A DNA stretch of 57,616 nt from a virus (Duplodnaviria; Caudoviricetes): positions 1 through 57,616 of IMG/VR virus record IMGVR_UViG_3300027801_000025. One strand, written 5' to 3'. Both the position numbers and the translations under genes were made by a program. Under the pieces are notes generated by a model. It had not been told where the DNA came from. It saw only the letters and a program-made list of their open reading frames with translations, and searched no databases. Positions 351-49,680 of the stretch are shown here, one piece after another (within the stretch, counting starts at the first letter, position 1; every line of letters starts with the position of its first letter).

Positions 351-554
351 AGTTATTATTATTTAGTTAGTTATTTTATAGATTATATTATTAAAGTTTA
401 ATAGTTTAATTATTTTATTAGTTTGGTATTGAGATAGAATAATTATTTTATTATTTAAAGATTTAATATTATAATGGTTATTAGTTAGAATATTAATAGT
501 TTTTTTGATTTGGAATTTGTTTGTAGTTAGTTTAATAATATATAGTTTTTATTG

Positions 555-597
555 GTTACAGTTATATTATCCAACTACTATCGTATTTAGTATGTAA
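555..597 (-). promoter_or_regulatory. Putative phage early promoter, copy 1 (TTACATAC-N2-AATACGATA-N5-TGGATAATATA-N2-TGTAAC)
   Basis: 36/43 identical to 1693-1735; both copies are intergenic and upstream of minus-strand small-ORF runs. Confidence 0.65.
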
Positions 598-1658: not shown

Positions 1659-1692
1659 AGTTATTATTATTTATTATTATTATTATTTATTT

Positions 1693-1735
1693 GTTACATA
1701 TATATTATCCATTTAGTATCGTATTACGTATGTAA
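1693..1735 (-). promoter_or_regulatory. Putative phage early promoter, copy 2
   Basis: Same four conserved blocks and spacing as 555-597; about 35 nt upstream of the ATG at 1658. Confidence 0.65.
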
Positions 1736-2724: not shown

Positions 2725-4290
2725 ATGGAATACAATAACCCTAGCGAGCTAGTGAAGGATTTATCCTTTGGTAGTGATGCTAAAAGTAAAATAATGGCTG
2801 GTGTTGATAAGCTGTCACAAGCAGTTAAGTCAACACTAGGAGCTTCTGGTAAATGCGTAATTTACGAGGATGCTAGAGGTAAACCGGTGATCACAAAAGA
2901 TGGTGTAACCGTTGCGGACAGCGTAGTCTTAATTGACCCGGTTGAGAATATTGGAGCCACCTTAATAAAGGAAGCTGCCAAAAACACAGTGAGAGAAGCA
3001 GGTGACGGTACTACTACAGCTACCGTCCTTGCTCAATCACTTTTAATAGAAGCATCGAAAGCTGAGGAATCAGTGAGAGACATCAAATTAGGCATCTCTT
3101 CGTACGCTAAAAAGATTAACAAGTATTTAGATGATATTGCTATAGAAGTTGAAGGAGACATGTTAGATAACGTAGCTTCAATATCATGTAACAACGATAA
3201 AGATTTAGGCACACTAATTTCTAGCGCTTATACTAAAGTGGGGAAATCAGGTGTGGTATTGATGGAAGAGTCTGAGACTGAACAAACGTACGTTGAAATC
3301 GTAGATGGAGTACAATTGGAATCAGGGTTAAAATCGCCACACCTTATTACTGATAAAGAAAAACAAAAGTGTGAATTAGAAAAACCATTAGTTCTTATAG
3401 TGTCCTCACCGATACCAAATATAAGAAAAATACAACCTATACTAGAGTTTGTTATAAAAAACAAGAGAGCTCTACTTATAGTTGCTGATGTAGAAGCACA
3501 AGTGTCTGCTACATTACTGATGAATAAGGTAAAAGGTAATATAAAAGTAAATTACATCGATCCTCCTGGTTTTGGTCCAACAAAAGCTGATACTATAGAA
3601 GATTTAGCTTTACTAACAGGAGCTCAAGTTATAAACGAAGAGCTAGGAGATGATTTAGATCTTATACAGCCTGATGTTTTGGGTGAAGCTGCTAAAGCGG
3701 TGACTGAAGATAAGGTTACAGTACTTACTATTGAAGATATGAATGATAAAATATCAGAAAGAGTTAAGGATGTAAAGAAAAGAATCAAAGAAGAGACTAA
3801 CCAATATATAAAACGTAGACTAGAACAAAGATTAGCTATGTTAAACGGCTCTGTAGCTGTTGTTAAAGTTGGTGCTGACTCTAAGATTGAGTTAAAGGAA
3901 AAGAAAGACAGAATAGAAGACTCTATATATGCTGTTAAAGCTGCTTTAAAAGAAGGAATTGTTCCAGGTGGAGGAATTGCTTTAGTAGATGCGGCAAGAA
4001 ATGTTAAACCAAAAGGCAAAGGTGAAGAAATATTAGCAAAAGCTATACTTTCACCGTTTTACACTATACTAGATAATGGCGGTATGCAAGGTGTATCACA
4101 CGAAGACCTTGAGGATGGCATCGGAATTGACGTAACGTGTGGTTGTAAAAGAAATATGATAGAAACTGGTATAATAGATCCGGTTTTGGTTACAAAATCG
4201 GCGCTAAAGAACGCTATTTCTGTAGTTTCAACCATTATTTCAGCTGATTGTGTAATAAGTAACGTAAGAATAAGCAATGCAAGCAGTTAA
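2725..4290 (+). CDS. groEL: Phage-encoded chaperonin GroEL (Cpn60)
   Basis: ITKDGVTVA, AGDGTTTATVLA, GIVPGGG and GIIDP motifs; no GGM tail. Confidence 0.97.
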   Translation: MEYNNPSELVKDLSFGSDAKSKIMAGVDKLSQAVKSTLGASGKCVIYEDARGKPVITKDGVTVADSVVLIDPVENIGATLIKEAAKNTVREAGDGTTTATVLAQSLLIEASKAEESVRDIKLGISSYAKKINKYLDDIAIEVEGDMLDNVASISCNNDKDLGTLISSAYTKVGKSGVVLMEESETEQTYVEIVDGVQLESGLKSPHLITDKEKQKCELEKPLVLIVSSPIPNIRKIQPILEFVIKNKRALLIVADVEAQVSATLLMNKVKGNIKVNYIDPPGFGPTKADTIEDLALLTGAQVINEELGDDLDLIQPDVLGEAAKAVTEDKVTVLTIEDMNDKISERVKDVKKRIKEETNQYIKRRLEQRLAMLNGSVAVVKVGADSKIELKEKKDRIEDSIYAVKAALKEGIVPGGGIALVDAARNVKPKGKGEEILAKAILSPFYTILDNGGMQGVSHEDLEDGIGIDVTCGCKRNMIETGIIDPVLVTKSALKNAISVVSTIISADCVISNVRISNASS

Positions 4291-23212: not shown

Positions 23213-23797
23213 ATGAGAAGCGTTTTCAACTATGTAGTTGAGCCTGTTGGTTCAAGGTACAATAATACAAAAAAGATAGACGGAAACGATCTGATATTAA
23301 ATACTCAGATTTTTACTCATCAAAGTGTTAATAGGTTAGCTGTTGTTAAACATGTACCTATCATCGGTAATCATAAAATACAAGTAGGTGATCACGTTAT
23401 AGTACACCACAACGTGTTTAGAAGGTTTCACGATATAAAAGGAAGAGAAAAAAACAGTAAAAGCTATATAGATGAAGATAACTACCTATGTGGTATTGAT
23501 CAAGTCTATGCTTACAAAAAAACAAAATGGATGCCTACTGAAGGATATGCTTTTGTAAAACCAATTCAATCTAATTATATATTTAGTACTAGCAAGGAAC
23601 AACCATTAAAAGGTATTTTGAAAATAGTTCAAGATAATCCACACTTAAAAGAAGGAGACTTAGTTGGCTTCACACCAAATAGTGAATATGAGTTTGTTAT
23701 TGATGGAGAAAGACTTTATAGAGTTAGATCAAAAAACTTAACAATAAAGTATGAACATCAAGGAAACGAAATTGAGTATAATCCAAGCTGGGCATAA
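23213..23797 (+). CDS. Tandem GroES-like (Cpn10-fold) protein
   Basis: Two units, each with V(E/K)P...G(D)xV(I/G): IQVGDHVIVHHN and LKEGDLVGF...EYEFVIDGERLYRV. Confidence 0.6.
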   Translation: MRSVFNYVVEPVGSRYNNTKKIDGNDLILNTQIFTHQSVNRLAVVKHVPIIGNHKIQVGDHVIVHHNVFRRFHDIKGREKNSKSYIDEDNYLCGIDQVYAYKKTKWMPTEGYAFVKPIQSNYIFSTSKEQPLKGILKIVQDNPHLKEGDLVGFTPNSEYEFVIDGERLYRVRSKNLTIKYEHQGNEIEYNPSWA

Positions 23798-33914: not shown

Positions 33915-36900
33915 ATGCCAGAAATAAAACGAGATTTTCGTGCGGGTCGAATGAACAAAGACCTAGACGAAAGGTTAGTTCCTAGTGGTGAATATAGAGA
34001 CGCTTTAAATATACAAGTAGCTAGTTCAGAAGGAGATGACGTTGGATCTATTCAAAATGTTCTTGGAAACAAATTAGCTTACCCGTCTCTTATAAATATA
34101 GCTGGAGGTAAATGTATAGGGTCATGTAGAGACTCTGCTAACGATAAGATATATTGGTTTATAGCTGGTACATCTGTTGACGTAATAGCAGAATATGATC
34201 AATACACAAAAACAGTATCACCAGTATTAGTAGATACTAGCAACGTTTTAGATTTAAACGCAAGCAACTTAATAACAGGTGTCAATATAATTGAAGGCTT
34301 GTTATTCTTCACAGACAACAGATCTGAACCTAAGACTGTTGATATAAAAAAATTTAAAGCTGGGTCTTCAAACTACACTACACACACTTTATTAACAACA
34401 GCACACTCAACAGCAACTTATAACTTTACATTAGATGATGTAACTGTTATAAAGAAATCACCAATCGAGGCGCCAACGATAGCTATGTCAGCATCCGTTA
34501 GAGGCGGTATAGTCGAGAGTGTATGTATAGCAAAAAGTTTTGTTGATGGTAGCGGAGATGCTTTAGCACCAGGAGCTCATCCTGATTCTAATAGTAACTT
34601 TACTTTTCAACACAACATGAACTTGTTAGTGGGTGATAGATTAAAGTTTACAATACTAGATGAAACCGAAGACGATGAAGTTATAGCTACGGTTATAGAT
34701 ATACTTTCTTTTTCGCCAAATAGCTTTAAGTTAAACTTAGATTCTGTATCTGATGGTATAGTTACTGGTACTCAAGACTGGAGAGTTATATTAATGGAAG
34801 ACAAATCCTTGTTTGAGTTTAAGTTTCCTAGATTTGCGTATAGATACAAGTACGATGATGGTCAATATTCTGCTATTGGTCCGTTTAGTCAAGTGGCTTT
34901 TTTGCCAGATGAGTTTGATTATAATCCTAAAAAAGGTTTTAATAAAGGTATGGTTAATACTTTAAAAAAGTTAACCGTATCTAATTTTATAACTAGTTAC
35001 ATACCTAAAGATGTAGTTGAGCTTGATGTATTATACAAGGAAGACGGTAGTACTAATATATACACGGTAAAAAGTTTAAAAGGTAAACCAGAGAATCAAG
35101 ACGAAGAGTGGACTAACAACTCTATGTTAATAGAGTCTGAAATAATATACAAAATACTACCATCTAATCAACTACTTAGACCTTGGGATAACGTTCCTAA
35201 AAAAGCTAAAGCTCAAGAGTTTACAGCTAATAGATTGCTTTATGGTAATTATACACAGCAATATGACATTAAAGATGTAAATAACGCAGAGATAACTCCA
35301 AAGTTTAGTGTGTCAATAATACAGTCAAGTGATTCTACTTATGGTGTTAGAACTCCAGGTAAGTCTATAAAATCTATGAGAACATACCAATTAGGTGTTG
35401 TTTATAGAGACGAATTTGGTAGAGAAACACCTGTGTTAACTGATACCACTGGTTCAATACAGCTACCTAAGTCGCAGGCTGTTAATTGGAATGTTCTACA
35501 AGTAAAACTTCTTAGTAACCCTCCGTCTTGGGCAACACATTATAAATACTTTTTAAAAGAAACATCTGCTGAGTACTACAATTTAGCTATGGATAGACAC
35601 TATCCAGCTGAAGATGGTAATGTTTGGTTAGCTTTTCCGTCCGCAGAAAGGAATAAAGTTACAGACGAAACTTTCTTGATACTTAAAAAGAGACACGACA
35701 GCGATGCTTTTGTGGAAGATGAAGCTAGATATAAAATAATAGCAATAGAGAACGATGCACCTGATTTCTTAACAATATCAAAAGTGTCTAAAGGTATAGC
35801 TACAGCAGATACTAATGGTAATTTATTTATAGATGGTGGTTACCCAGAGAAAGGTACTGCACAAATAAGAATACCTAGAAGCTTATGGAAACCTCATTTT
35901 GGTGGGACAACAGGTAGTAGTGATGACGTAGACTTATCAACAGCATCGATACATACTTTATCAGATTTAATGGTTAGAGTAAAAAAAGGTAACAACGTTA
36001 CTAAGTATTATGATATAGCTAATATAATATATGAGCCAACCTCAACAGGTTTAGAATTTGTTAATACAACTACAGATTGCCCAGATAATAAATACTGGCA
36101 AATCAATATAGAAAAAACATTTGACGAGTCAGATGTTAATTGGCTAGGAACTGTTGGAGATGGTAACACAATACAAAGCGTTTCAATGACTGTTGAAATT
36201 GCTCAGAAAGTAAGAAAACTAAAACCAGAATTTCAAGGTAGATTTTTTGCTAAAATATACAGAGACTCTTCATTAGAACAAAACATACTACAGTTTAATA
36301 ACATTGATGAAATGAAGGTAGTTGCTCAGAATAACTTCTGGCAAGTTGGTAATGATGCTGGTACATCTTTAGGTTACAACACTGGTGGTGGTCAAAATCA
36401 AAGGTATAACTATTGGAGAAACAAAGATAAAGGAACTGGAACAGATCACACAGCTAACTGGTTTATACCTAGGTTTAAGAAATTTAATTGGTGGAAAGAT
36501 CTAGGTGGAGAAGGAGATGTTCAAGTTAATAGAGGCTTAGGAGAAGTGTCTGACTCAGTTGTAGTTAATACTCAAGCTTACGGAATAAGACAAGGTGAAG
36601 ATGTTGTTGAAATAGCGTTTCATAATTTTGGTAAGAAAGGTAAAAACACTTCCAACGGGCAAGATGATGTTGTTTGGGGTGAGTGGATTAAATTTGGCAA
36701 CACGGTTGCTGGTGAACATAAGGATTTTGTTAACGCACTACAAACAATAGGTAACTATATTAAGTTTTCAGGTGATCCTGACGAAACCGCTTATGAAATA
36801 AAAGGATATAGAAGAGGTGGTGCTGTCATGTATAAAGGTAGAAAAAGTGGTGGTGGTGGAAGAACTGGTACGTTTGCATCTTCAAGAGTTGTGATATTTA

Positions 36901-38327
36901 CATTAAAACTAGATAAACCAGTACAATGGGCTCCAGAAGATAACGTGTTAAATATAATAAATGGTTACCATTATAACACTCCAATACAAATAGGTACAAC
37001 ATATGTTGATGAAGATGATTTAGATGGGTTTACAACAGATAACCCAGGTATATGGGAGACAGAGCCTAAAGAAGTTGCTGAGCTAGACATATATTACGAA
37101 GCTAGTAACGCTTACGCTATAAGTACACATGGCAATGATCAGGCTTTAGATTATCACAATTGTTTTTCATTTGCTAATGGTGTTGAATCTAACAGAATAA
37201 GAGATGATTTTAATGCTAAAACTATAAACAAAGGTGTTAAAGCAAGTAGCACTGTAGCTGAGCAGTATAACGAAGAGGTTAAAACTAACGGTTTAATATT
37301 CTCTGGAATATTTAACTCTACAGCCAGTGTGAATAGATTGAATCAATTTATAATGGCCGAAGCTATAACTAAAGATCTTAACCCAGAATACGGTAGTATT
37401 CAAAAACTAAACACTAGAGATACTGATGTTACTGTATTTTGTGAAGATAAAGTTCTTAGAGTTTTAACAAATAAAGATGCTTTATTTAACGCTGATGGTA
37501 ATGCTAACATAACAGCTAATAAAAGTGTGTTAGGTCAATCTATGCCTTACGTTGGAGACTTTGGAATTAGCTTAAACCCTGAGAGCTTTGCTAAGTACGG
37601 TTTTAGAAGTTACTTCACCGATAGAGCAAGAGGAACTGTTTTAAGGTTGTCTAGAGATGGTTTAGAACCTTTATCACCTAAAGGTATGGCTGATTACTTT
37701 ACTGACAAGTTAGCTGTGACTCAAATAGCTGTTGGTTCGTATGATGACAAGAAAGGATCTTACAACATATCTTTACAAAGTAATACAGTAAGAGGCGCCG
37801 ATGAAACAGCTACGTTTAAAGAGAACGTAGGTGGTTGGCCAAGTAGAAAGTCTTTTATACCTGAAAGCGGTATATCACTAAACAACATGTACTACACGTT
37901 TAAAGGTGGTGAAATGTACTCTCATGATAACGAGACTAGAAATAACTTTTATGGTGTTCAATATAATTCTAGTTTAAAATTAATATTCAATGATAATCCT
38001 GACGTTGTTAAAAGCTTTTTAACTCTTAACTACGAAGGTACCCAACCATATTGGAAAGCTGATTTAAATGACGGAGAATATTATAACAACGCCACTAAGT
38101 ATGGTTGGTGGAATACAGCTGTTGAAACGGATCTACAATCAGGTAAAGCAAATGAGTTCAAAGGCAAAGAAGGTAAGTGGTTTAACTACATACACGGTAC
38201 AGCTACAACGTTAAGTAATATTGATACTGAAGAATTTTCAGTACAAGGTATTGGTAGTTTAGCTAGCATATCAGGTGATGTTGCTCCAGCTAATGTAACT
38301 ATAACGGTAAAAGAAAACAACGACTAA
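33915..38327 (+). CDS. Tail muzzle / stabilization protein (P22 gp10-like)
   Basis: GRMNKDLDERLVP.GEYRDALN N-terminus, KEGKWFNYI C-terminus, 1470 aa. Confidence 0.75.
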   Translation: MPEIKRDFRAGRMNKDLDERLVPSGEYRDALNIQVASSEGDDVGSIQNVLGNKLAYPSLINIAGGKCIGSCRDSANDKIYWFIAGTSVDVIAEYDQYTKTVSPVLVDTSNVLDLNASNLITGVNIIEGLLFFTDNRSEPKTVDIKKFKAGSSNYTTHTLLTTAHSTATYNFTLDDVTVIKKSPIEAPTIAMSASVRGGIVESVCIAKSFVDGSGDALAPGAHPDSNSNFTFQHNMNLLVGDRLKFTILDETEDDEVIATVIDILSFSPNSFKLNLDSVSDGIVTGTQDWRVILMEDKSLFEFKFPRFAYRYKYDDGQYSAIGPFSQVAFLPDEFDYNPKKGFNKGMVNTLKKLTVSNFITSYIPKDVVELDVLYKEDGSTNIYTVKSLKGKPENQDEEWTNNSMLIESEIIYKILPSNQLLRPWDNVPKKAKAQEFTANRLLYGNYTQQYDIKDVNNAEITPKFSVSIIQSSDSTYGVRTPGKSIKSMRTYQLGVVYRDEFGRETPVLTDTTGSIQLPKSQAVNWNVLQVKLLSNPPSWATHYKYFLKETSAEYYNLAMDRHYPAEDGNVWLAFPSAERNKVTDETFLILKKRHDSDAFVEDEARYKIIAIENDAPDFLTISKVSKGIATADTNGNLFIDGGYPEKGTAQIRIPRSLWKPHFGGTTGSSDDVDLSTASIHTLSDLMVRVKKGNNVTKYYDIANIIYEPTSTGLEFVNTTTDCPDNKYWQINIEKTFDESDVNWLGTVGDGNTIQSVSMTVEIAQKVRKLKPEFQGRFFAKIYRDSSLEQNILQFNNIDEMKVVAQNNFWQVGNDAGTSLGYNTGGGQNQRYNYWRNKDKGTGTDHTANWFIPRFKKFNWWKDLGGEGDVQVNRGLGEVSDSVVVNTQAYGIRQGEDVVEIAFHNFGKKGKNTSNGQDDVVWGEWIKFGNTVAGEHKDFVNALQTIGNYIKFSGDPDETAYEIKGYRRGGAVMYKGRKSGGGGRTGTFASSRVVIFTLKLDKPVQWAPEDNVLNIINGYHYNTPIQIGTTYVDEDDLDGFTTDNPGIWETEPKEVAELDIYYEASNAYAISTHGNDQALDYHNCFSFANGVESNRIRDDFNAKTINKGVKASSTVAEQYNEEVKTNGLIFSGIFNSTASVNRLNQFIMAEAITKDLNPEYGSIQKLNTRDTDVTVFCEDKVLRVLTNKDALFNADGNANITANKSVLGQSMPYVGDFGISLNPESFAKYGFRSYFTDRARGTVLRLSRDGLEPLSPKGMADYFTDKLAVTQIAVGSYDDKKGSYNISLQSNTVRGADETATFKENVGGWPSRKSFIPESGISLNNMYYTFKGGEMYSHDNETRNNFYGVQYNSSLKLIFNDNPDVVKSFLTLNYEGTQPYWKADLNDGEYYNNATKYGWWNTAVETDLQSGKANEFKGKEGKWFNYIHGTATTLSNIDTEEFSVQGIGSLASISGDVAPANVTITVKENND

Positions 38328-42393: not shown

Positions 42394-45300
42394 ATGAACG
42401 AACTAGAAAAAATCGTACAGCGCATGATCGAGGCTGGTGAGCCTGAAGAGAATATAGCAACTGTTATACAATCTTACAACTCGCCGGGAAAGACATCGGA
42501 TCCTGTACAAGTGGAGTCAAACACGGGATCAGAAGATACGGACTCCAATTCGGTAAATACTTTGTCGGAATCACAAGAGGAGAATAACGATTTTGAAGAT
42601 TTTCTTGGACAAGATTACGTAGATGCTAAAAACAAAGAGGCTAAAGGTAAAGGAGACATGGGTTTTCTTTATGGAGCTATTGACTGGGTATCTGATATAG
42701 GTAGATCAGGAAGCGCTGGTTGGGATTTGGGTGGAACACTAGATTCTTCGTTAAACCTACATAACAAAGGTATGTCTGGAATGAGTGAATCTGAAAAGGA
42801 AGAGCTAGTTAAAGACATGAATACATCTTTGAATATAGGTAGAACAGATGAGATGAAAGCTTTTGACGATGCATATGCTAAAAATGTAGAAAAACACGGT
42901 GGTATTAAAGCTTTTTTCATGGGTTGGTCAGAAAACAAAACCGTGATGACTCAGTACTCTATGCAATCTATGGCTATGATGGCCGCTTCTCTAGGGAACG
43001 GTGAATCAATAAAAACTGCCTTAAAAGGAGGTGCAGCTGGTTTTGGAGTTGGATTTGCAGCAAGTAAGTATGGTAAAATGATTCCTGGTAGAGTTGGAAA
43101 AGCTTTAAGCACTATAACAGCTTTACAAGGAGCTGGTGGTGGACTTATGGGTGGTATATCAAAAACTTTAGAAAAAGGTTTTACTACTATGGATCTTTTA
43201 AATGAAAAAGGAGCTGAAGTGTATGGTGATAAATGGACTTCAAGCTCAAGTGAAGGTAAATTATCAATGCTTGAAGAAATGACCTCTAACAAAGATCTTT
43301 ATGATGATATAAAAAGTAAAGCTGTAGCTAGAGGTAATACAATTGGTTTTGTAGACGCTGTAACAGGTATGGTTACGTTAGGAGTTGGTACAAGTATAGG
43401 TAGAGGAGCAGCTAAAAGCTCTTTATCAAGAGGTACAAAGTTACTACAAGCTGGTGGTATGGCTGCTACTGAAACAGCTGGTGGAATAGTTAGTGAAATA
43501 GGTGGTCAAATTGCTGCTGGACAAGATATAGATCCAAAAGAATATTTGTTAGAAGGTGTTGCTGATAAAACATTTACATTAGCTTCAACTGTTAAAAGAG
43601 GAATAAGAAACAATCCTAAGTATAAAATTAACGGTGAAGAGATGAATGGCAAAAGGTTTCAAGAGACCGTAATGTCTTTAGATGATGAAGCTTTTGTTGG
43701 TGGTGATTTTTCAGTAGAAAATAGCCCTGTTATGAATCAAATAATTCAAAACAGACAACAAGACATTAACATAGATATGGATATAAACAGCCAAGTTAAT
43801 GACGTGGCTGATAGAGCTAAAATAATAAAACTTGAAAGAGAAGTTAATTCACTATCTGGTAAGTCAACAGTTTCTTCTAAAAACAAAGCTTCTAGTTTAA
43901 AACAACAAATAAAAGAAATTGAGTTAAAATACGAAAACAATCAAGACGTAGCTACTCAAGATCAAAGAAAGCAAGCTATAGCTCAAGCAAGATCTAATAA
44001 GTTTGACAATGCTTACAATAAAAACTATAAAGCTGTAGAGTCTTTTGCAAAAAAGAAAGGTTTAAATGTTTTAGATTTTGAAAACGAAAATGACTATTTC
44101 AATGCTATTGCAAAAAACCAAGGTATAAGCTTCGAGCAAGCTAAAAAAGCTTCAAAATTATCTGACGGGGCTTTTGTTGGAAAAGGTGAAATATTTATAA
44201 ACAAAACTAGAGCAAGAGAGGTTGGAGCGGTAACAGTAGCTCAGCATGAAGTATTACACCCTATACTTAACTCTTTAATAGGTGGTATAGGTAGTCAAGG
44301 TAAAATAGTAAATGAGTTTAAAAAACAACTAAACTCTAAGCAAAGAAAAATAATAGAAAAAGCTCTAGGTGATCAACCAAGCGACACTGAATATTTAAAT
44401 GTTTTTACTGATAATTTTGATGCTGTAATGGCAGAGCAAAATATAACACAAAAAATTAGTGACTTTTTTAAAGATCAGTTCGTTAAGCTAGGCTTTGAAA
44501 ACATTAATTTTGAAACAGGTGACGGTATATATAACTTTCTTAAAGAATACAATACAAGTATTAAAAAAGGTAAGTTAAGTGAAAGAGCTGAAAAAGCTGT
44601 TGATAAAGCTGAAAGTAAAGCTAAAACAAAGATTAGCGATGTAGATGTTGCTGATAAAGTACAGTACTCACAAACGTCAGCTGAAGCTCAGAAGGTTAAC
44701 GACATATATGAAAACACACCTAATAAAACAGAAGCTGGTTTTGAAATAGCTATGTTATATAGAGGTATGGCTGAAAGTGTATTTAAGTCATTAAGAGACG
44801 GGAGTGGTTATGTTCAGGATCAAGTAGATGTTATCAATGATAACAAAGACGATATGATACCTATGATGCTTTACGATAAAATACCTAGTCAAGCTTCAGA
44901 TTCTAAAGCTAGAAATGTTTTAGGTTTAGTTCAAGATTTTGAAAAGGAAAAGCAGAAATACGGTAACGTTGCTGCGTATATAAATACATTCTTTAAAAAT
45001 AGATCAAAAGAAGTTTTTAAATACTTTGTGCCAGATGCAGTACTAGAAGGTTTAAATAAAGAAGATGGTACTTTAAAGACAGCTGTTAAGAAAAAGAAAA
45101 ACACTGTAGCTAAAGAAGAAACAGGTCCTGTTGCTAGAAAAGCTACTAGCTTTGATAAACTAAAGGATGGAAATAATAAAGATTTTTACAGTGAAACAAT
45201 TAAAAGAGATGTCATAAAAGATGTTGGTATGATACTGATTAGAAACATTGGTAGAAAGAAAATTAGCACTGATAATATAATAGAAAACATAGAGGAAAAC

Positions 45301-48300
45301 GTTGACAAGCATATATCTAGAACTATCAAAGATCAGATGGGTGATATAAGCAATAAAAAAGGTCAACTAGAAGTTAGCTCTAAATATAAAGAATTTATAA
45401 ATGATAGCTACCAAGTGGCTATTAAGTCTTTTCCTTTGAGTTCTATAAAGAAATCATACGGTAAGCTATTTAAGCTTGAGAAGCTAAGTAGAGAGAAAAC
45501 AGCAGTAGGTAAGGGTGTTTTTAAAATGACAGCACCTACAAGAGCTGAGTGGGGTGCGCATCACACTATAGGTCGTTATACAACGCTTAAAGCTAGACAG
45601 TTAGTTTTAGCTAAAGAAATGGCTGCTGATTTTAATAAAACAGAAGTTAGTAAATTATTAACAGACGGGAAATTTATTGAAAAGCTACTTGAGGTTGCTG
45701 ATCTTAGTAATGTTGAGTTACCCGCTATAGTTTTAGATCAAACTATTAAAGATATAAACGTAGGGTTAGATAGAAAGATAGATGAAAGTAGAAGTTTTGA
45801 CACCACTATTCAGTTCAGTCAAACAATGTACGACTCTAAACAAAGCGAAGCTGTTATAAAAGCTTTAAAAACTCCATACGCTAAACATGTATATAGAACT
45901 AACTACATAGAAAGAACCAACGAAAGATGGTTAGTAAAAGCTATATCTCAAGTGCTAAAAGCTTCTGATATAAAAGATGCTAGAAAAATAGCTGAAGAAT
46001 TAGGAAAACCTTGGATGGCGAAAAACACTGTAGCTAAAGAAAAACAAAAAGGTCTAGATTTTGCTATAGATAATTTACATACAAAAATAACTGGAGGTGA
46101 GGTAACTGTAAGAGCTTTAAACGCTAAGCACGGTATTAAAAGTATAGTAGATTTAAATAGTTTAGATGGTGTTAATAGTGCTAGAAAAGCCATAAATTAT
46201 ATATCTAAAAAATTAACCAAAAGTGAGTTTATAAGAGGTATATATCAGGGTGTTACAAATCCAGCTAGAGTAGCAGGTTTTGAAGTTAATGATAATGTTG
46301 GATTAGAAATTAAAAAATCTGAGGCAACAGCTATACCAGAGTTTAAAAGCAATGGTAAAAGAAATAAAGCGTATTACTCGGCATTTAAAAACACTAAAGA
46401 TATAAATAAAAACGTAAATATAGAATCTACGAAAGACAGCTTTAGAGACGGTAATATAACTAAAAAGGATTGGTATTATGGAAATCCATTCAACAAACTT
46501 GATGATAACGGTAAAAAAGCTTTTGTAAAAAAATTATATGATAGCAGTTTAGAAGATAGACGTATATTGTTAAAGCTTGCAGATGTGTTAAGAAAAGGTA
46601 TTGTAGATGGTGATTTAACATACCAACAAGTGCAGTGGGTTTTAGTAACTCAATTTGGTAACATGGTTGGTGTTGGTAAAGCAGCGGCTGGTCCTAAGTT
46701 TTTAATGTTAGATAAGAATGATAATGTATTAACATTTAAAAATTTTTCAGATAAGAAAAAAGATCCAGGTGTACTAGAGCACATGATACCAGCTGATTAC
46801 ATAAAAGGATTAGTTTATGATTATGTTATAACGGGTAATAAAGAAACTTTAGTTGCAGAATTAGAAAATTATGCTACGTTGGTTTTACCAGATGTGATTG
46901 ATAAAAAACTTAGAGAAGATGGTACTCAATCAGCTATGGGTATAGATCACAAAGTAGGATCTAAACCTACTGATAACAGATATTCAGGTACAGGATTAAG
47001 GTTATATGACGTTTCTACAGGTAAGATTATAGACACGGGATTACAATACTCTAAAACAGAATACAATAAATCGGCTAACATAATAAAAGCTGAAAATATA
47101 GTTAATGGTCCACCAAAAGGTATAAGTGTATTTGACTTTGATGACACACTTGCTCAAACTAATAGTAAGATATTAGTGACAATGCTTGGTGGTAAGAAAA
47201 TTAAGATAGATGCTACTGAGTTTGCGCTACAGTCTGCTGATTTAGAAGCTGCTGGTGCAAAGTTTGACTTTAGCGAATTTAATAAAGTTATTGAGGGTAA
47301 GAAAGGTCCTTTGGCTGATCTTGCATTAAAAAGACAAGGTAAGTTCGGAAGCAAAGATATATTTGTATTAACCGCTAGGCCACAACAAGCTGCGTATGCT
47401 ATACATGCATTTTTAAAAGGTATTGGTTTAGATATACCTATAGATAATATCACAGGCTTAGAAGATGGCAAAGCACAAGCTAAAGCTGATTGGATAGCGG
47501 AAAAAGCTGCTGATGGTTATAACGATTTCTACTTTGCAGATGATGCTTATAAAAACGTCAAAGCTGTACAAGATACATTAAACCATTTAAATTTAAATCC
47601 AAACGTAGAACTAGCTAAGATTCAATTTAGTAAAAGTAATTCAGATATATTTAATGATATACTAGAAGGAACTAAAGGTGTTAAGTCAGAAAAAAGATTT
47701 AATCCTGCAGCGGCTAAAGCTAAAGGTGCTACTAGAAAAAACAGTTGGTTTATACCACCTGGTGCAGAGGATTTTCAAGGCTTGATATATCAATTTTTAA
47801 CTAAAGGTAAAAGAGGAGAGTTACAAAAGAAGTTTTTTGAATTAAGATTGTTTAAACCTTTCGCTAAAGCTAACGCAGCTATGAATAGAGCTAAGCAAGC
47901 TTACGTTGACGGTTTTAAAGCTATAAATAAAAGATACCCTGGAGTAAATGAAAAGCTAAATCAAAAGCTTAGTAAAGGTGAATACTTTATGCAAGATGCT
48001 GTTAGAGTTTATATATGGAACAAAACAGGTCAAGTAGTTCCTGGTATGGATCAAAATGAAGTTCAATCTTTAGTTAACTTTGTTGAAAAGTACTCAGACA
48101 TAACGGCTTACGCTAATGACATAATCAATATGTCTAGAGATACAAACTACATAAAACCTAGTGAACATTGGTTAGATGGTAGCGTTGCTAGTGATATACA
48201 AGATCTAACGTCTAAAGAAAACAGAAAGAAGTTTCTTGGTGAATGGATAAAGAATAAGAATGAGATATTCTCTAAAGAAAATCTAAATAAAATAGAGGCT

Positions 48301-49680
48301 ATATATGGTGAAGACTATAGATCTGCTCTTGAAGATATTCTATGGAGAATGGAAAATGGAACAAATAGATCAATTGGCACCAACAAATTAGTTAATAACT
48401 TCATGAATTGGGTGAATAACTCTGTAGGAGCTATTATGTTTTTCAACATGAGATCCGCTGTTCTTCAGACCATATCTATGGTTAACTTTATAAACTGGTC
48501 AGACAACAACCCTGTTAAAGCAGCAGGCGCATTAGCTAACTTTGATCAATACATAGAGGATTTTAGCACTATATTTAATTCAGACATGTTAAAACAGAGA
48601 AGATCTGGATTACAAACAGATGTTAGTCACGCTGAATTAGCTAAATCAATAAGAGGTAGAGGTAATACACCAAGTGCTTTATTGAAAGAGTTATTAAGAT
48701 TAGGTTTCACACCAACGCAAATGGCAGATAGTTTTGCTATTGCTTCAGGTGGTGCTACTTTTTATAGAAACAGAATTAAAACATACGTTGGACAAGGTTT
48801 AACAAAACAACAAGCTGAAGCACAAGCTTTTGAAGATTTTGCTGAAATATCAGAACAATCACAGCAATCATCTAGACCAGATTTAATATCACAACAACAA
48901 GCTGGTCCATTAGGTAGATTGATATTAGCTTTCCAGAATACACCGATGCAGTATACTAGATTAATTAAAAAATCTATACTAGACCTATACAACGGTAGAG
49001 GAGATGCTAAGACACACATATCAAAAATAGCTTACTATGGTCTTGTACAAAATTTAGTTTTTACAGCTTTACAAAACGCTATATTTGCATTAGCATTTGA
49101 AGATGATGAAGAGGACAATAAAATACTAGATGCTAAAGGAGCTAGAATGGCTAACAGTATGGTTGATACTATACTTAGAGGTACCGGTGTTTATGGTGCT
49201 GCTGTATCTACTATAAAAAATGTATTGCTTAAATTCAAACAACAAGAAGATAAAGGTTGGAACGCGGATCATACTTATACAGTTATTGAGTTTGCTAATC
49301 TCTCTCCTCCGATAGGAAGTAAAGCTAGAAAGTTGTACTCAGGTATACAAACCTGGAAATTTAATAAAGAAGCTATTGCTGATTACGGACCAGGTATAGG
49401 TAATCCTATATATCAAGCCTTTGGTAATGTTGTAGCTGCAGGAACAAATATTCCGCTAGATAGATTGTTTAATAAGATCAATAACCTTAAAGCAACTCTA
49501 AATAGTCAAAATCAAGCATGGCAGAGATTTGCTAACTTCTTAGGTTGGAACACTTGGGATGTAGGATCTGTTGCTAACCCTAAGTTAGAGAAATTAAAAA
49601 ACAAGAAACGTAAGAAAAAAAGATCTTCAAGTAAAACTAAAGATGCTTACGAAGCTTACAAAAAACGTAAAAAAAATTAA
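42394..49680 (+). CDS. Giant polyvalent internal virion protein (zincin, sigma region 2-like, EHxxP nuclease-like and HAD phosphatase segments)
   Basis: HEVLH at 44245; FDFDDTL at about 47131 with VLTAR and FADD HAD motifs; EHMIP at 46777; four Q[YF]S[QK][TS] linkers. Confidence 0.75.
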   Translation: MNELEKIVQRMIEAGEPEENIATVIQSYNSPGKTSDPVQVESNTGSEDTDSNSVNTLSESQEENNDFEDFLGQDYVDAKNKEAKGKGDMGFLYGAIDWVSDIGRSGSAGWDLGGTLDSSLNLHNKGMSGMSESEKEELVKDMNTSLNIGRTDEMKAFDDAYAKNVEKHGGIKAFFMGWSENKTVMTQYSMQSMAMMAASLGNGESIKTALKGGAAGFGVGFAASKYGKMIPGRVGKALSTITALQGAGGGLMGGISKTLEKGFTTMDLLNEKGAEVYGDKWTSSSSEGKLSMLEEMTSNKDLYDDIKSKAVARGNTIGFVDAVTGMVTLGVGTSIGRGAAKSSLSRGTKLLQAGGMAATETAGGIVSEIGGQIAAGQDIDPKEYLLEGVADKTFTLASTVKRGIRNNPKYKINGEEMNGKRFQETVMSLDDEAFVGGDFSVENSPVMNQIIQNRQQDINIDMDINSQVNDVADRAKIIKLEREVNSLSGKSTVSSKNKASSLKQQIKEIELKYENNQDVATQDQRKQAIAQARSNKFDNAYNKNYKAVESFAKKKGLNVLDFENENDYFNAIAKNQGISFEQAKKASKLSDGAFVGKGEIFINKTRAREVGAVTVAQHEVLHPILNSLIGGIGSQGKIVNEFKKQLNSKQRKIIEKALGDQPSDTEYLNVFTDNFDAVMAEQNITQKISDFFKDQFVKLGFENINFETGDGIYNFLKEYNTSIKKGKLSERAEKAVDKAESKAKTKISDVDVADKVQYSQTSAEAQKVNDIYENTPNKTEAGFEIAMLYRGMAESVFKSLRDGSGYVQDQVDVINDNKDDMIPMMLYDKIPSQASDSKARNVLGLVQDFEKEKQKYGNVAAYINTFFKNRSKEVFKYFVPDAVLEGLNKEDGTLKTAVKKKKNTVAKEETGPVARKATSFDKLKDGNNKDFYSETIKRDVIKDVGMILIRNIGRKKISTDNIIENIEENVDKHISRTIKDQMGDISNKKGQLEVSSKYKEFINDSYQVAIKSFPLSSIKKSYGKLFKLEKLSREKTAVGKGVFKMTAPTRAEWGAHHTIGRYTTLKARQLVLAKEMAADFNKTEVSKLLTDGKFIEKLLEVADLSNVELPAIVLDQTIKDINVGLDRKIDESRSFDTTIQFSQTMYDSKQSEAVIKALKTPYAKHVYRTNYIERTNERWLVKAISQVLKASDIKDARKIAEELGKPWMAKNTVAKEKQKGLDFAIDNLHTKITGGEVTVRALNAKHGIKSIVDLNSLDGVNSARKAINYISKKLTKSEFIRGIYQGVTNPARVAGFEVNDNVGLEIKKSEATAIPEFKSNGKRNKAYYSAFKNTKDINKNVNIESTKDSFRDGNITKKDWYYGNPFNKLDDNGKKAFVKKLYDSSLEDRRILLKLADVLRKGIVDGDLTYQQVQWVLVTQFGNMVGVGKAAAGPKFLMLDKNDNVLTFKNFSDKKKDPGVLEHMIPADYIKGLVYDYVITGNKETLVAELENYATLVLPDVIDKKLREDGTQSAMGIDHKVGSKPTDNRYSGTGLRLYDVSTGKIIDTGLQYSKTEYNKSANIIKAENIVNGPPKGISVFDFDDTLAQTNSKILVTMLGGKKIKIDATEFALQSADLEAAGAKFDFSEFNKVIEGKKGPLADLALKRQGKFGSKDIFVLTARPQQAAYAIHAFLKGIGLDIPIDNITGLEDGKAQAKADWIAEKAADGYNDFYFADDAYKNVKAVQDTLNHLNLNPNVELAKIQFSKSNSDIFNDILEGTKGVKSEKRFNPAAAKAKGATRKNSWFIPPGAEDFQGLIYQFLTKGKRGELQKKFFELRLFKPFAKANAAMNRAKQAYVDGFKAINKRYPGVNEKLNQKLSKGEYFMQDAVRVYIWNKTGQVVPGMDQNEVQSLVNFVEKYSDITAYANDIINMSRDTNYIKPSEHWLDGSVASDIQDLTSKENRKKFLGEWIKNKNEIFSKENLNKIEAIYGEDYRSALEDILWRMENGTNRSIGTNKLVNNFMNWVNNSVGAIMFFNMRSAVLQTISMVNFINWSDNNPVKAAGALANFDQYIEDFSTIFNSDMLKQRRSGLQTDVSHAELAKSIRGRGNTPSALLKELLRLGFTPTQMADSFAIASGGATFYRNRIKTYVGQGLTKQQAEAQAFEDFAEISEQSQQSSRPDLISQQQAGPLGRLILAFQNTPMQYTRLIKKSILDLYNGRGDAKTHISKIAYYGLVQNLVFTALQNAIFALAFEDDEEDNKILDAKGARMANSMVDTILRGTGVYGAAVSTIKNVLLKFKQQEDKGWNADHTYTVIEFANLSPPIGSKARKLYSGIQTWKFNKEAIADYGPGIGNPIYQAFGNVVAAGTNIPLDRLFNKINNLKATLNSQNQAWQRFANFLGWNTWDVGSVANPKLEKLKNKKRKKKRSSSKTKDAYEAYKKRKKN

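Follow-up and report, generated by a model that had tools for sequence, protein, structure and literature searches.

Does the giant protein encoded in IMG/VR virus record IMGVR_UViG_3300027801_000025 carry a part that engages the host RNA polymerase (RNAP), and if so, is that part a sigma factor? The record, a linear contig of 57,616 bp, was analysed in full and is called the window here; CheckV puts its completeness at 84%, and genomes of this phage group measure about 60-69 kb. An earlier note on this DNA had placed a stretch resembling region 2 of sigma70 at positions 44700-45030, inside an open reading frame (ORF) of 2428 amino acids (aa) that we term P0001, and had suggested that the phage injects a sigma-like factor instead of an RNAP and thereby redirects the host enzyme to a repeated 43-bp early motif. 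The peptides on which the note relied do lie there (aa 784-800, 843-851 and 866-875, nucleotides 44743-45018), and they belong not to a linker but to a conserved domain of about 125 aa, domain A, within a conserved module at aa 760-1145. We propose that domain A may be an RNAP-binding module resembling sigma70 domain 2 (sigma2) and forming part of a cargo polyprotein; that it is a true injected sigma factor we regard as improbable. The parts of P0001 on which the question turns are these:

42394-49680, plus strand: giant ORF of 2428 aa (P0001), an uninterrupted reading frame for a putative cargo-type polyvalent protein
44677-45048, plus strand: domain A, aa 762-885, acidic (isoelectric point, pI, 4.9), seven helices, predicted sigma2-like fold
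45049-45147, plus strand: basic linker, aa 886-918 (pI 10.0), predicted disordered, with a predicted local distance difference test (pLDDT) value below 50 at model residues 152-174
45148-45798, plus strand: domain B, aa 919-1135, basic (pI 9.4), helices and beta-hairpins, without an assigned fold

The likeness to sigma is clearest in the predicted fold. An AlphaFold2 model of aa 740-1150 (411 aa, alignment of 77 rows) has a mean pLDDT of 75.5 and consists of domain A (aa 762-883 in the model), the disordered basic linker and domain B (aa 919-1132), and a domain-only model (aa 757-900, 52 rows) reaches a pLDDT of 85.6 with a predicted template modelling score of 0.78. When the latter was compared with 48,161 chains in the VIA fold search, 28 of the 50 rows were sigma factors or sigma holoenzymes and the first 11 of the 50 were sigma2; with the 411-aa model, 19 of the 21 rows covering domain A were sigma or sigma-complex entries. 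Sigma identity was verified by molecule name for 11 chains among these rows, and that of chains 7d7d_F, 9n9q_C, 7lq4_A and 7vpd_F is taken from entry titles only. As sigma rows dominate the VIA searches, sigma2 is the nearest known fold of domain A, a likeness that falls short of establishing homology. On these models we consider it quite probable that domain A has a sigma2-like fold.

The predicted partner agrees with the predicted fold. Domain A (aa 760-892, with an alignment of our own of 69 rows) was co-folded with a 150-aa fragment carrying the beta' clamp helices from a Flavobacteriaceae metagenome-assembled genome (MAG), as the earlier note had envisaged for Flavobacteriia, and the pair passed with a score of 0.70 (runs of 0.70, 0.71 and 0.66), compared with 0.09 for the best of three controls; the pass mark is reached by 58 of 80 solved complexes and by 2 of 110 mismatched pairs. 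Contact agreement across the runs was at least 65% and partner pLDDT at least 79. On the beta' side the contacts fall on fragment residues 47-78, which are the coiled-coil clamp helices, and on domain A they fall on aa 779-787 and 816-831, the helices that profile alignment with HHalign equates with sigma regions 2.1 and 2.2. In 56-69% of sequences the 2.2-like helix remains acidic. Binding of domain A to the clamp helices, as modelled, is in our judgement about evenly poised between true and false.

The whole explanation that we favour runs as follows. P0001 would be a multi-module cargo ('polyvalent') protein whose modules are split by (I/V)Q(F/Y)S(K/Q)(T/S) junctions, and its second module (aa ~760-1140) would open with domain A, an acidic helical domain predicted to fold like domain 2 of the sigma70 family. 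The prediction places the region-2.1/2.2-equivalent helices of domain A against the beta' clamp helices of the host RNAP, the binding site of sigma itself. If P0001 enters the particle and is ejected in the manner of the crAss-like proteins encoded at the same position, as gene order suggests, an RNAP-binding module would be delivered together with the DNA, and its binding could result in promoter-specific initiation, in competition with the host sigma, or in tethering of the polymerase to the entering DNA. An RNAP-binding, sigma2-like module of a cargo polyprotein, borne by an uncultured flavobacterial podophage with a crAss-type particle, is the best explanation that we can offer, and we put its chances at around half.

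Profile comparison adds to this, at a lower level. An alignment of 194 domain A sequences was compared by HHalign with 27 sigma2 segments of genuine sigma factors, taken from five MAGs of Flavobacteriaceae or Bacteroidota, and 76 columns aligned colinearly (P 0.011, score 19.5). This score was the highest among 31 comparisons, the reversed control gave P 0.75, and 30 decoys scored 7.5-16.1 over at most 32 columns. For scale, the genuine sigma of this phage group reaches P 2.6e-4 in the same set-up. The register found is the one that the earlier note had drawn by eye with sigma regions 2.1-2.4. By this measure the resemblance of domain A to sigma2 appears to exceed chance at a modest level. In sigma factors, aromatic and basic residues of regions 2.3 and 2.4 melt and read the -10 element. 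The best-conserved residues of domain A (R840, Y862, N864, R870 and E873) lie on the long helix equivalent to these regions, and Y862, N864, R870 and E873 are conserved in 90-99% of the 194 sequences. HHalign pairs Y862 and F866 with an aromatic Tyr and Trp of real sigmas and sets the first Trp opposite a Thr, so that the tryptophan pair of region 2.3 is not retained in domain A. The domain is not confined to the window: a profile search of a library of 1.84 billion proteins returned 281 clusters (50% identity) at E ≤ 0.001, and among the 150 matches listed 101 are proteins of at least 1500 aa, the short ones looking like fragments of giant ORFs.

A good part of the evidence weighs against this explanation, and it does so on both the structural and the sequence side. 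In the domain-only VIA search Z stays below 8 throughout, and Foldseek found nothing significant in PDB with either model (best E 0.23 and 1.5) or in BFVD (best E 0.67), where 7 of the 50 rows are named phage sigma factors at a non-significant E of 1.6-4.6. The co-fold may have passed through the predictor's memory of, or a likeness to, the many solved sigma-beta' complexes; it used an alignment of our own making, and its beta' fragment folded poorly (pLDDT ~50). Conservation is lower at the predicted contact residues than elsewhere in domain A (group conservation of 0.43 vs 0.62), and several of these residues sit in an insertion that is present in only ~30% of the family.

Searches by sequence are mostly negative. 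No Sigma70 match emerged from Pfam at E ≤ 10, whether the query was P0001 whole, eight pieces of it or the six-frame genome; the same scan detected this family in 11 of 14 control genomes. The Pfam rows for P0001 were sub-threshold matches to unrelated families only (best E 0.018, RPM2), and no Sigma70_r3 or Sigma70_r4 match was found in P0001 at E ≤ 10. At the same slot in 27 relatives, Sigma70_r2 (PF04542, gathering score 24 bits) was matched twice below threshold (E 0.052 and 0.14, best 13.8 bits), both times in one subfamily other than that of the window, and 53 further family members had no match (0 of 23 at E ≤ 0.01 and 0 of 30 at E ≤ 2). A profile search of PDB with domain A returned no sigma, and with a sigma2 hidden Markov model (HMM) 195 real segments of domain A scored no better than their reversed or shuffled versions. 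HHalign of smaller domain A alignments against the 27 sigma2 segments was null in five runs, four with alignments of 77, 43, 22 and 7 sequences (P 0.46; 0.5, 0.4 and 0.35) and one of profile A5 against A7 (P 0.5). The 8-sequence alignment of the L112-type subfamily gave P 0.047 over 16 columns only, and none of these values improved on reversed controls. Being the best of about seven tries, the P of 0.011 counts as modest support. Between domain A and the phage group's own sigma HHalign detects no specific kinship (P 0.24, reversed control 0.22), and domain B compared with the full form of that sigma gave P 0.16; the fold-search rows for domain B are helical-repeat proteins, which is weak evidence that a sigma4 is absent. 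By sequence, then, membership of domain A in the sigma70 family is not supported, Pfam and the PDB profile search having no sigma match and the HMM no separation.

Two observations on the slot occupied by domain A may be added. In the subfamily comprising L112, L113, L117, L122, L125, L138, L139 and P0041 the slot is about 60 aa longer than aa 760-900 of the window, and it holds an Ala/Glu/Pro/Lys-rich spacer and a second sigma-region-2-like stretch, the L112-type slot being the sole site of the weak Sigma70_r2 match. A language-model search of the protein Atlas gave clusters bearing LPD39 as its largest set (16 of 30 matches at a score of 0.95, with recognition low at 1749). Pfam did not bear out an identity of domain A with LPD39, having no match to it in the window or in 80 family members; no LPD model of Pfam reached its cut-off, the sub-threshold matches being LPD18 in 1 of 27 (E 0.001) and LPD14 in 1 of 23 (E 0.0032).

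The case for ejection is one of position and architecture. The rightward gene block of the window encodes GroEL, tail-fibre proteins, large terminase, portal, a capsid-type protein and a muzzle-like protein of 1470 aa (gene at 33915-38327), the C-terminus of which matches the crassvirus muzzle domain PF25729 in Pfam; four small ORFs separate this gene from P0001. By terminase, the nearest cultured phages are podophages of about 60 kb that infect Flavobacterium (elemoviruses, 44% identity), Cellulophaga, Tenacibaculum and Maribacter, and elemovirus NC_055852 has at the same position a 3694-aa gp21 annotated 'structural protein'. According to passages of PMC10172136 and of the preprint 10.1101/2020.03.07.982082, the place behind the muzzle in crAss-like phages belongs to a block of cargo proteins and virion RNAP, which are found in virions and modelled as ejected. 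The position that the earlier note had assigned to the giant gene is confirmed to this extent: P0001 lies downstream of the PF25729 muzzle gene, in the order of crAss-like virion cargo given in passages of PMC10172136. For packaging and ejection of P0001 gene order is the only ground, and this counts against the favoured explanation.

P0001 has 74 full-length homologues, and more than 582 IMG/VR stretches encode a relative. From conservation in a 54-sequence alignment (A1) of full-length homologues, the modules and borders beyond domains A and B are:

42394-44133, plus strand: N-terminal module, aa 1-580, Gly/Ala-rich, with a moderately hydrophobic segment at aa 316-336 and no family match
44161-44613, plus strand: zincin-like metallopeptidase module, aa 590-740, with HEVLH at aa 618-622 and E666
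44659-44676, plus strand: junction motif 1, VQYSQT, aa 756-761
45808-45825, plus strand: junction motif 2, IQFSQT, aa 1139-1144, with F1141 invariant
45826-47040, plus strand: variable module, aa 1145-1549, weakly conserved with many indels
47041-47058, plus strand: junction motif 3, LQYSKT, aa 1550-1555
47059-47619, plus strand: HAD-like module, aa 1556-1742, with DFDDT (a DxDxT motif) at aa 1581-1585
47620-47637, plus strand: junction motif 4, IQFSKS, aa 1743-1748
47638-49677, plus strand: C-terminal module, aa 1749-2428, the most conserved part, with more than 100 invariant columns

H618, E619, H622 and E666 of the zincin-like module are invariant in the 54 sequences; the module has no Pfam match, and we read it as zincin-like by the definition of HExxH plus a downstream Glu in passages of PMC5512222. 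The HAD-like module has a Pfam HAD match of E 0.23 (12.3 bits vs a cut-off of 27), and for the C-terminal module the protein Atlas search returned viral hypothetical proteins only. The (I/V)Q(F/Y)S(K/Q)(T/S) pattern occurs four times, at module borders, where 0.0019 occurrences are expected, and Q[FYM]S is retained at borders 1, 2, 3 and 4 in 28, 43, 32 and 39 of the 54 homologues, rising to 44 of 54 at border 1 under a relaxed pattern. As a zincin is the usual processing enzyme of polyvalent proteins in passages of PMC5512222, where zincin-processed, injected polyvalent proteins are a known design, these junctions are probably the cutting sites of the built-in HExxH zincin. P0001 contains no cysteine, and a hydropathy scan found only two weakly hydrophobic segments in it (aa 316-336 and 2216-2235), a composition that would fit an unfolded, threaded chain. 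It has the features by which polyvalent proteins are defined in passages of PMC5512222, being giant, built of several modules (at least six in this case) and furnished with HExxH and a downstream Glu. Known proteins offer little else: P0001 has no match among PHROGs or, by tblastn, in 50,697 phage records, and sequence searches of PDB with P0001 and with profile A3 gave chance-level rows only (ribosomal L7a, E 0.62; V-ATPase A, E 0.018). Six segment profiles of P0001 compared with phi14:2 gp65, gp66 and gp67 and with elemovirus gp21 and gp22 gave nothing usable, the best being the zincin segment against gp21 residues 1517-1665 at 9.8 bits.

Whether the module could stand in for an injected polymerase depends on what else these phages encode. 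P0001 has no DxDxD polymerase motif; among 170 family proteins DxDxD strings are scattered without a conserved site, the DFDID of the control phi14:2 gp66 being found at residue 1361. Nor was any sequence similarity of P0001 to phi14:2 gp65, gp66 or gp67 detected. We rejected the idea that P0001 is a divergent crAss virion polymerase, as neither the catalytic motif nor such similarity was found. In five complete relatives (G018, G006, G047, G038 and G054) searches run without a positive control found gp66-like RNAP in none and T7-like RNAP in none. All five, on the other hand, encode on the leftward strand a conventional sigma70-family protein of 252-257 aa (L347-L351), matched by PF04542 in each and over its cut-off in four, and text of regions 2, 3 and 4 is recognisable by eye in the translations. 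The window itself has no conventional sigma gene by Pfam on the six-frame genome; by coordinate mapping to the closest complete relative, G018, the gene falls within the ~11 kb missing from the contig, downstream in the leftward block. Since no RNAP was found and a conventional sigma is present in five of five, we conclude that the lineage relies on the core polymerase of its host, alongside at least one ordinary sigma of its own. The suggestion of a sigma instead of an RNAP is therefore half sustained: neither a crAss-type nor a T7-type RNAP turned up in the five complete relatives and P0001 has no DxDxD, but an ordinary sigma is encoded as well, and for phage-specific promoters this is the simpler candidate, to the disadvantage of the injected-sigma extension.

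The early-region motif that the earlier note had offered as the target of the factor is present twice:

553-597, minus strand: early-region motif copy 1, upstream of a minus-strand ORF, probably acting leftwards
1691-1735, minus strand: early-region motif copy 2, 36 nucleotides (nt) from the start codon of a leftward ORF

On the window alone the evidence for it is weak, as two copies of the core GTTACANNTATATTATCCA are found where 0.54 are expected and 9 of 100 shuffles reach two. Elsewhere the motif is well attested: GTTACANNTATATTATCCA occurs exactly in 109 IMG/VR stretches, and with up to two mismatches 42 of 49 near-complete relatives have the motif, each genome holding 1-7 copies that are clustered and nearly always on one strand, compared with 4 matches in total for a backwards control pattern. 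The conserved block is about 45 nt long, faces leftward genes and contains a -7-like box, TATATATG. Presence of the motif and of domain A do not go together, and the proposed link between the domain and the repeated 43-bp motif falls on this point: among 20 relatives selected for the giant protein only, the motif occurs in 4 of the 6 whose domain A is A5-type and in 9 of the remaining 14, and 29 genomes selected by the motif divide into 14 with an A5-type domain and 15 without. This sample left out 7 of the 57 chosen loci (L053, L055, L056, L084, L107, L115 and L119) and did not include L260, and the A5 profile misses other variants in the same slot, for instance in the L101 genome. As possible readers of the motif we would rank the host sigmaA before the phage's ordinary sigma, and the cargo module last.

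The motif is conserved far more strongly than the proteins of these phages. In some lineages it has variants ending in TCGA or TCAA, and those ending in TCGA seem to accompany slot variants that A5 misses. Nearby, at 1740-1870 of the window, about nine closely spaced copies of TGTCAT or GTGTCAT occupy the divergent intergenic stretch that separates the leftward from the rightward block; they could serve as an origin or as an array for repressor binding. A GC-rich island of ~150 nt, in a region of otherwise 26% GC, lies at 1890-2040, directly before the first rightward ORF, and no Rfam family corresponds to it at gathering score; a search of the whole window gave no Rfam family either.

Three other accounts of domain A have to be set beside the favoured one. 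According to the boldest, the module is a true injected sigma: a factor of ~380 aa, cut out at the QFS junctions, has replaced in this group the injected RNAP of crAss-like phages, its sigma2-like domain grips the beta' clamp helices and, with the basic domain B, it directs host core polymerase to the early motif, so that the earliest phage transcripts arise ahead of the expression of any phage gene, that of the ordinary sigma included. All the support for the favoured explanation applies to it too, the motif is real and faces leftward genes (GTTACANNTATATTATCCA exact in 109 stretches, 42 of 49 relatives), and by eye it seems to lack the two-box spacing of Bacteroidota promoters. The G018 mapping puts the gene of the conventional sigma further downstream in this block of leftward genes, so that its product cannot be present at time zero, and the most conserved residues of domain A (Y862, N864, R870 and E873) are on the helix equivalent to regions 2.3-2.4. 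Yet motif and domain do not co-vary, 15 of the 29 motif-selected genomes being without the A5-type domain, no sigma4 or other recognised DNA-reading part was found, the region 2.3 tryptophan pair is not retained, and host sigmaA or the 252-257-aa phage sigma would be simpler readers of a motif that contains the -7-like box TATATATG. We think it improbable that the module is such a factor.

A more sober account, to which we allow a substantial share of probability short of an even one, holds that the likeness to sigma is mere analogy and that domain A makes no contact with RNAP but has another job, in packing or as a chaperone within the cargo protein, as a partner of domain B, or as an enzyme of the 'large polyvalent protein domain' (LPD) kind. 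It would explain why the sequence tests against sigma are all null or marginal, why Z stays below 8 for a helical domain and why Foldseek is without a significant match; LPD39-bearing clusters are the largest set in the language-model search (16 of 30 at 0.95, low recognition), the invariant polar set R840, Y862, N864, R870 and E873 might make up an active site or a binding site, and the predicted beta' contacts are not preferentially conserved. What it leaves unexplained is that the nearest folds are almost exclusively sigma2 (the first 11 of 50 and 28 of 50 overall, out of 48,161 chains), that an independent predictor with clean controls docks domain A on the canonical sigma site, and that the profile alignment runs colinearly through the entire domain in the by-eye register; for its LPD form, there is no LPD39 match by Pfam in the window or 80 family members. 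Alternatively P0001 is never ejected, being a fixed structural, tail or envelope-acting component, and an RNAP-binding domain in it would never meet its target. The ejection claim for this family rests on gene order, the neighbouring ORFs encode virion structural proteins, and passages of the phi14:2 preprint 10.1101/2020.03.07.982082 also allow a peptidoglycan-digesting role for the zincin protein. Its position, on the other hand, matches that of crAss-like cargo genes whose products are detected in virions and modelled as ejected in passages of PMC10172136, the lack of cysteines and the two weakly hydrophobic segments in 2428 aa would fit a threaded chain, and the modules are enzyme-like (zincin, HAD-like) and not fibre-like; we hold a fixed component to be unlikely, if less so than a true injected sigma.

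Apart from the giant gene, the window encodes chaperonins, a GroEL-type protein at 2725-4290 (Pfam Cpn60_TCP1, E 2.7e-50) and a GroES-like protein at 23213-23797 that has a PHROG match only; GroEL/GroES-type genes are also present in elemoviruses and in phi14:2. The phage ribonucleotide reductase gene has near-identical copies (80-94%) on short contigs (L165-L202) in MAGs labelled Aliivibrio, Nitrosomonadales, Thiothrix, Chloroflexota and others; in all likelihood, phage contigs were here mis-binned into unrelated genomes.

Three ways in which phages seize transcription are known: they inject a polymerase (N4, crAss-like phages), inject enzymes that modify the host RNAP (T4 Alt), or make sigma factors after infection. 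A particle-borne, RNAP-binding, sigma-like module would, if true, be a fourth route, and it would account for the start of the programme in crAss-related phages without a virion polymerase. With 281 clusters at 50% identity the domain family is large, and it belongs to abundant uncultured phages of marine Flavobacteriia; because it is dark to Pfam, assigning a fold and a testable partner to domain A opens many giant 'hypothetical' phage proteins to experiment, and the conserved QFS junctions provide a testable rule for the cutting of the polyprotein. In searches of the literature on crAss-like virion RNAP, polyvalent proteins and virion-packaged sigma we came upon no sigma-like domain in cargo or polyvalent proteins, and by title or the start of the abstract the elemovirus literature has nothing on the giant protein.

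Among known systems, domain 2 of sigma70 (PF04542; for example the ECF sigma ShbA 9m84_F, SigB 8x6g_H and sigma32 8hkc_E) is the closest comparison. Domain A resembles it in being acidic, in the predicted docking of its 2.1/2.2 helices on the beta' clamp helices and in the colinear profile (P 0.011), and differs from it in having no Pfam or HMM membership and in carrying additional helices, as well as an insertion that parts the 2.1-like helix from the 2.2-like one. It differs from sigma factors as such in that it has no sigma3 or sigma4 partner and is embedded in a protein of 2428 aa, whereas they are free factors of 20-70 kDa. T4 gp55 is a minimal phage sigma, essentially a sigma2-like domain alone, that binds the host polymerase; it is a free late-gene product working with helper proteins. 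Chain F of the fold-search entry 7d7d is, to judge by the entry title, presumably this protein. Like gp55, domain A is a sigma2-like domain, as predicted, in a phage protein in which no other sigma domain was found; unlike it, domain A lies within a probable virion cargo protein and has no known helpers. The phage group's own sigma (252-257 aa, L347-L351) comes from the same lineage and has the same presumed target, the host core polymerase, but it is a genuine PF04542 member and a free protein of the leftward block, with no specific kinship to domain A in HHalign.

With the crAss-like block (phi14:2 gp67-gp66-gp65; crAss001 gp45-gp50) P0001 shares its place behind the muzzle, its giant size, its mostly helical character and a zincin-like module, and in some crAss-like phages, according to passages of 10.1101/2020.03.07.982082, the cargo and RNAP block is fused into one polyprotein that is probably cut. 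P0001 differs from that block in having no DFDxD/DxDxD motif and no detected similarity, and in belonging to a genome of ~60-69 kb compared with ~100 kb. With the polyvalent proteins of Iyer et al. 2017 (PMC5512222) it shares, going by passages of that paper, the design of a giant protein of many modules centred on a zincin-like HExxH peptidase, and delivery of such proteins with the DNA is proposed there to jump-start transcription or to counter host systems. Their transcription modules are, in the same passages, N4-type polymerases and ADP-ribosyltransferases and not a sigma-like domain; the word 'sigma' is absent from the main text of that paper, the supplementary domain tables of which could list domain A under an LPD name. 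Set beside these published designs, that is, injected polymerases, injected modifying enzymes, sigma factors made after infection and zincin-processed polyvalent proteins, a cargo polyprotein with a sigma2-like, RNAP-binding module would be a new variant.

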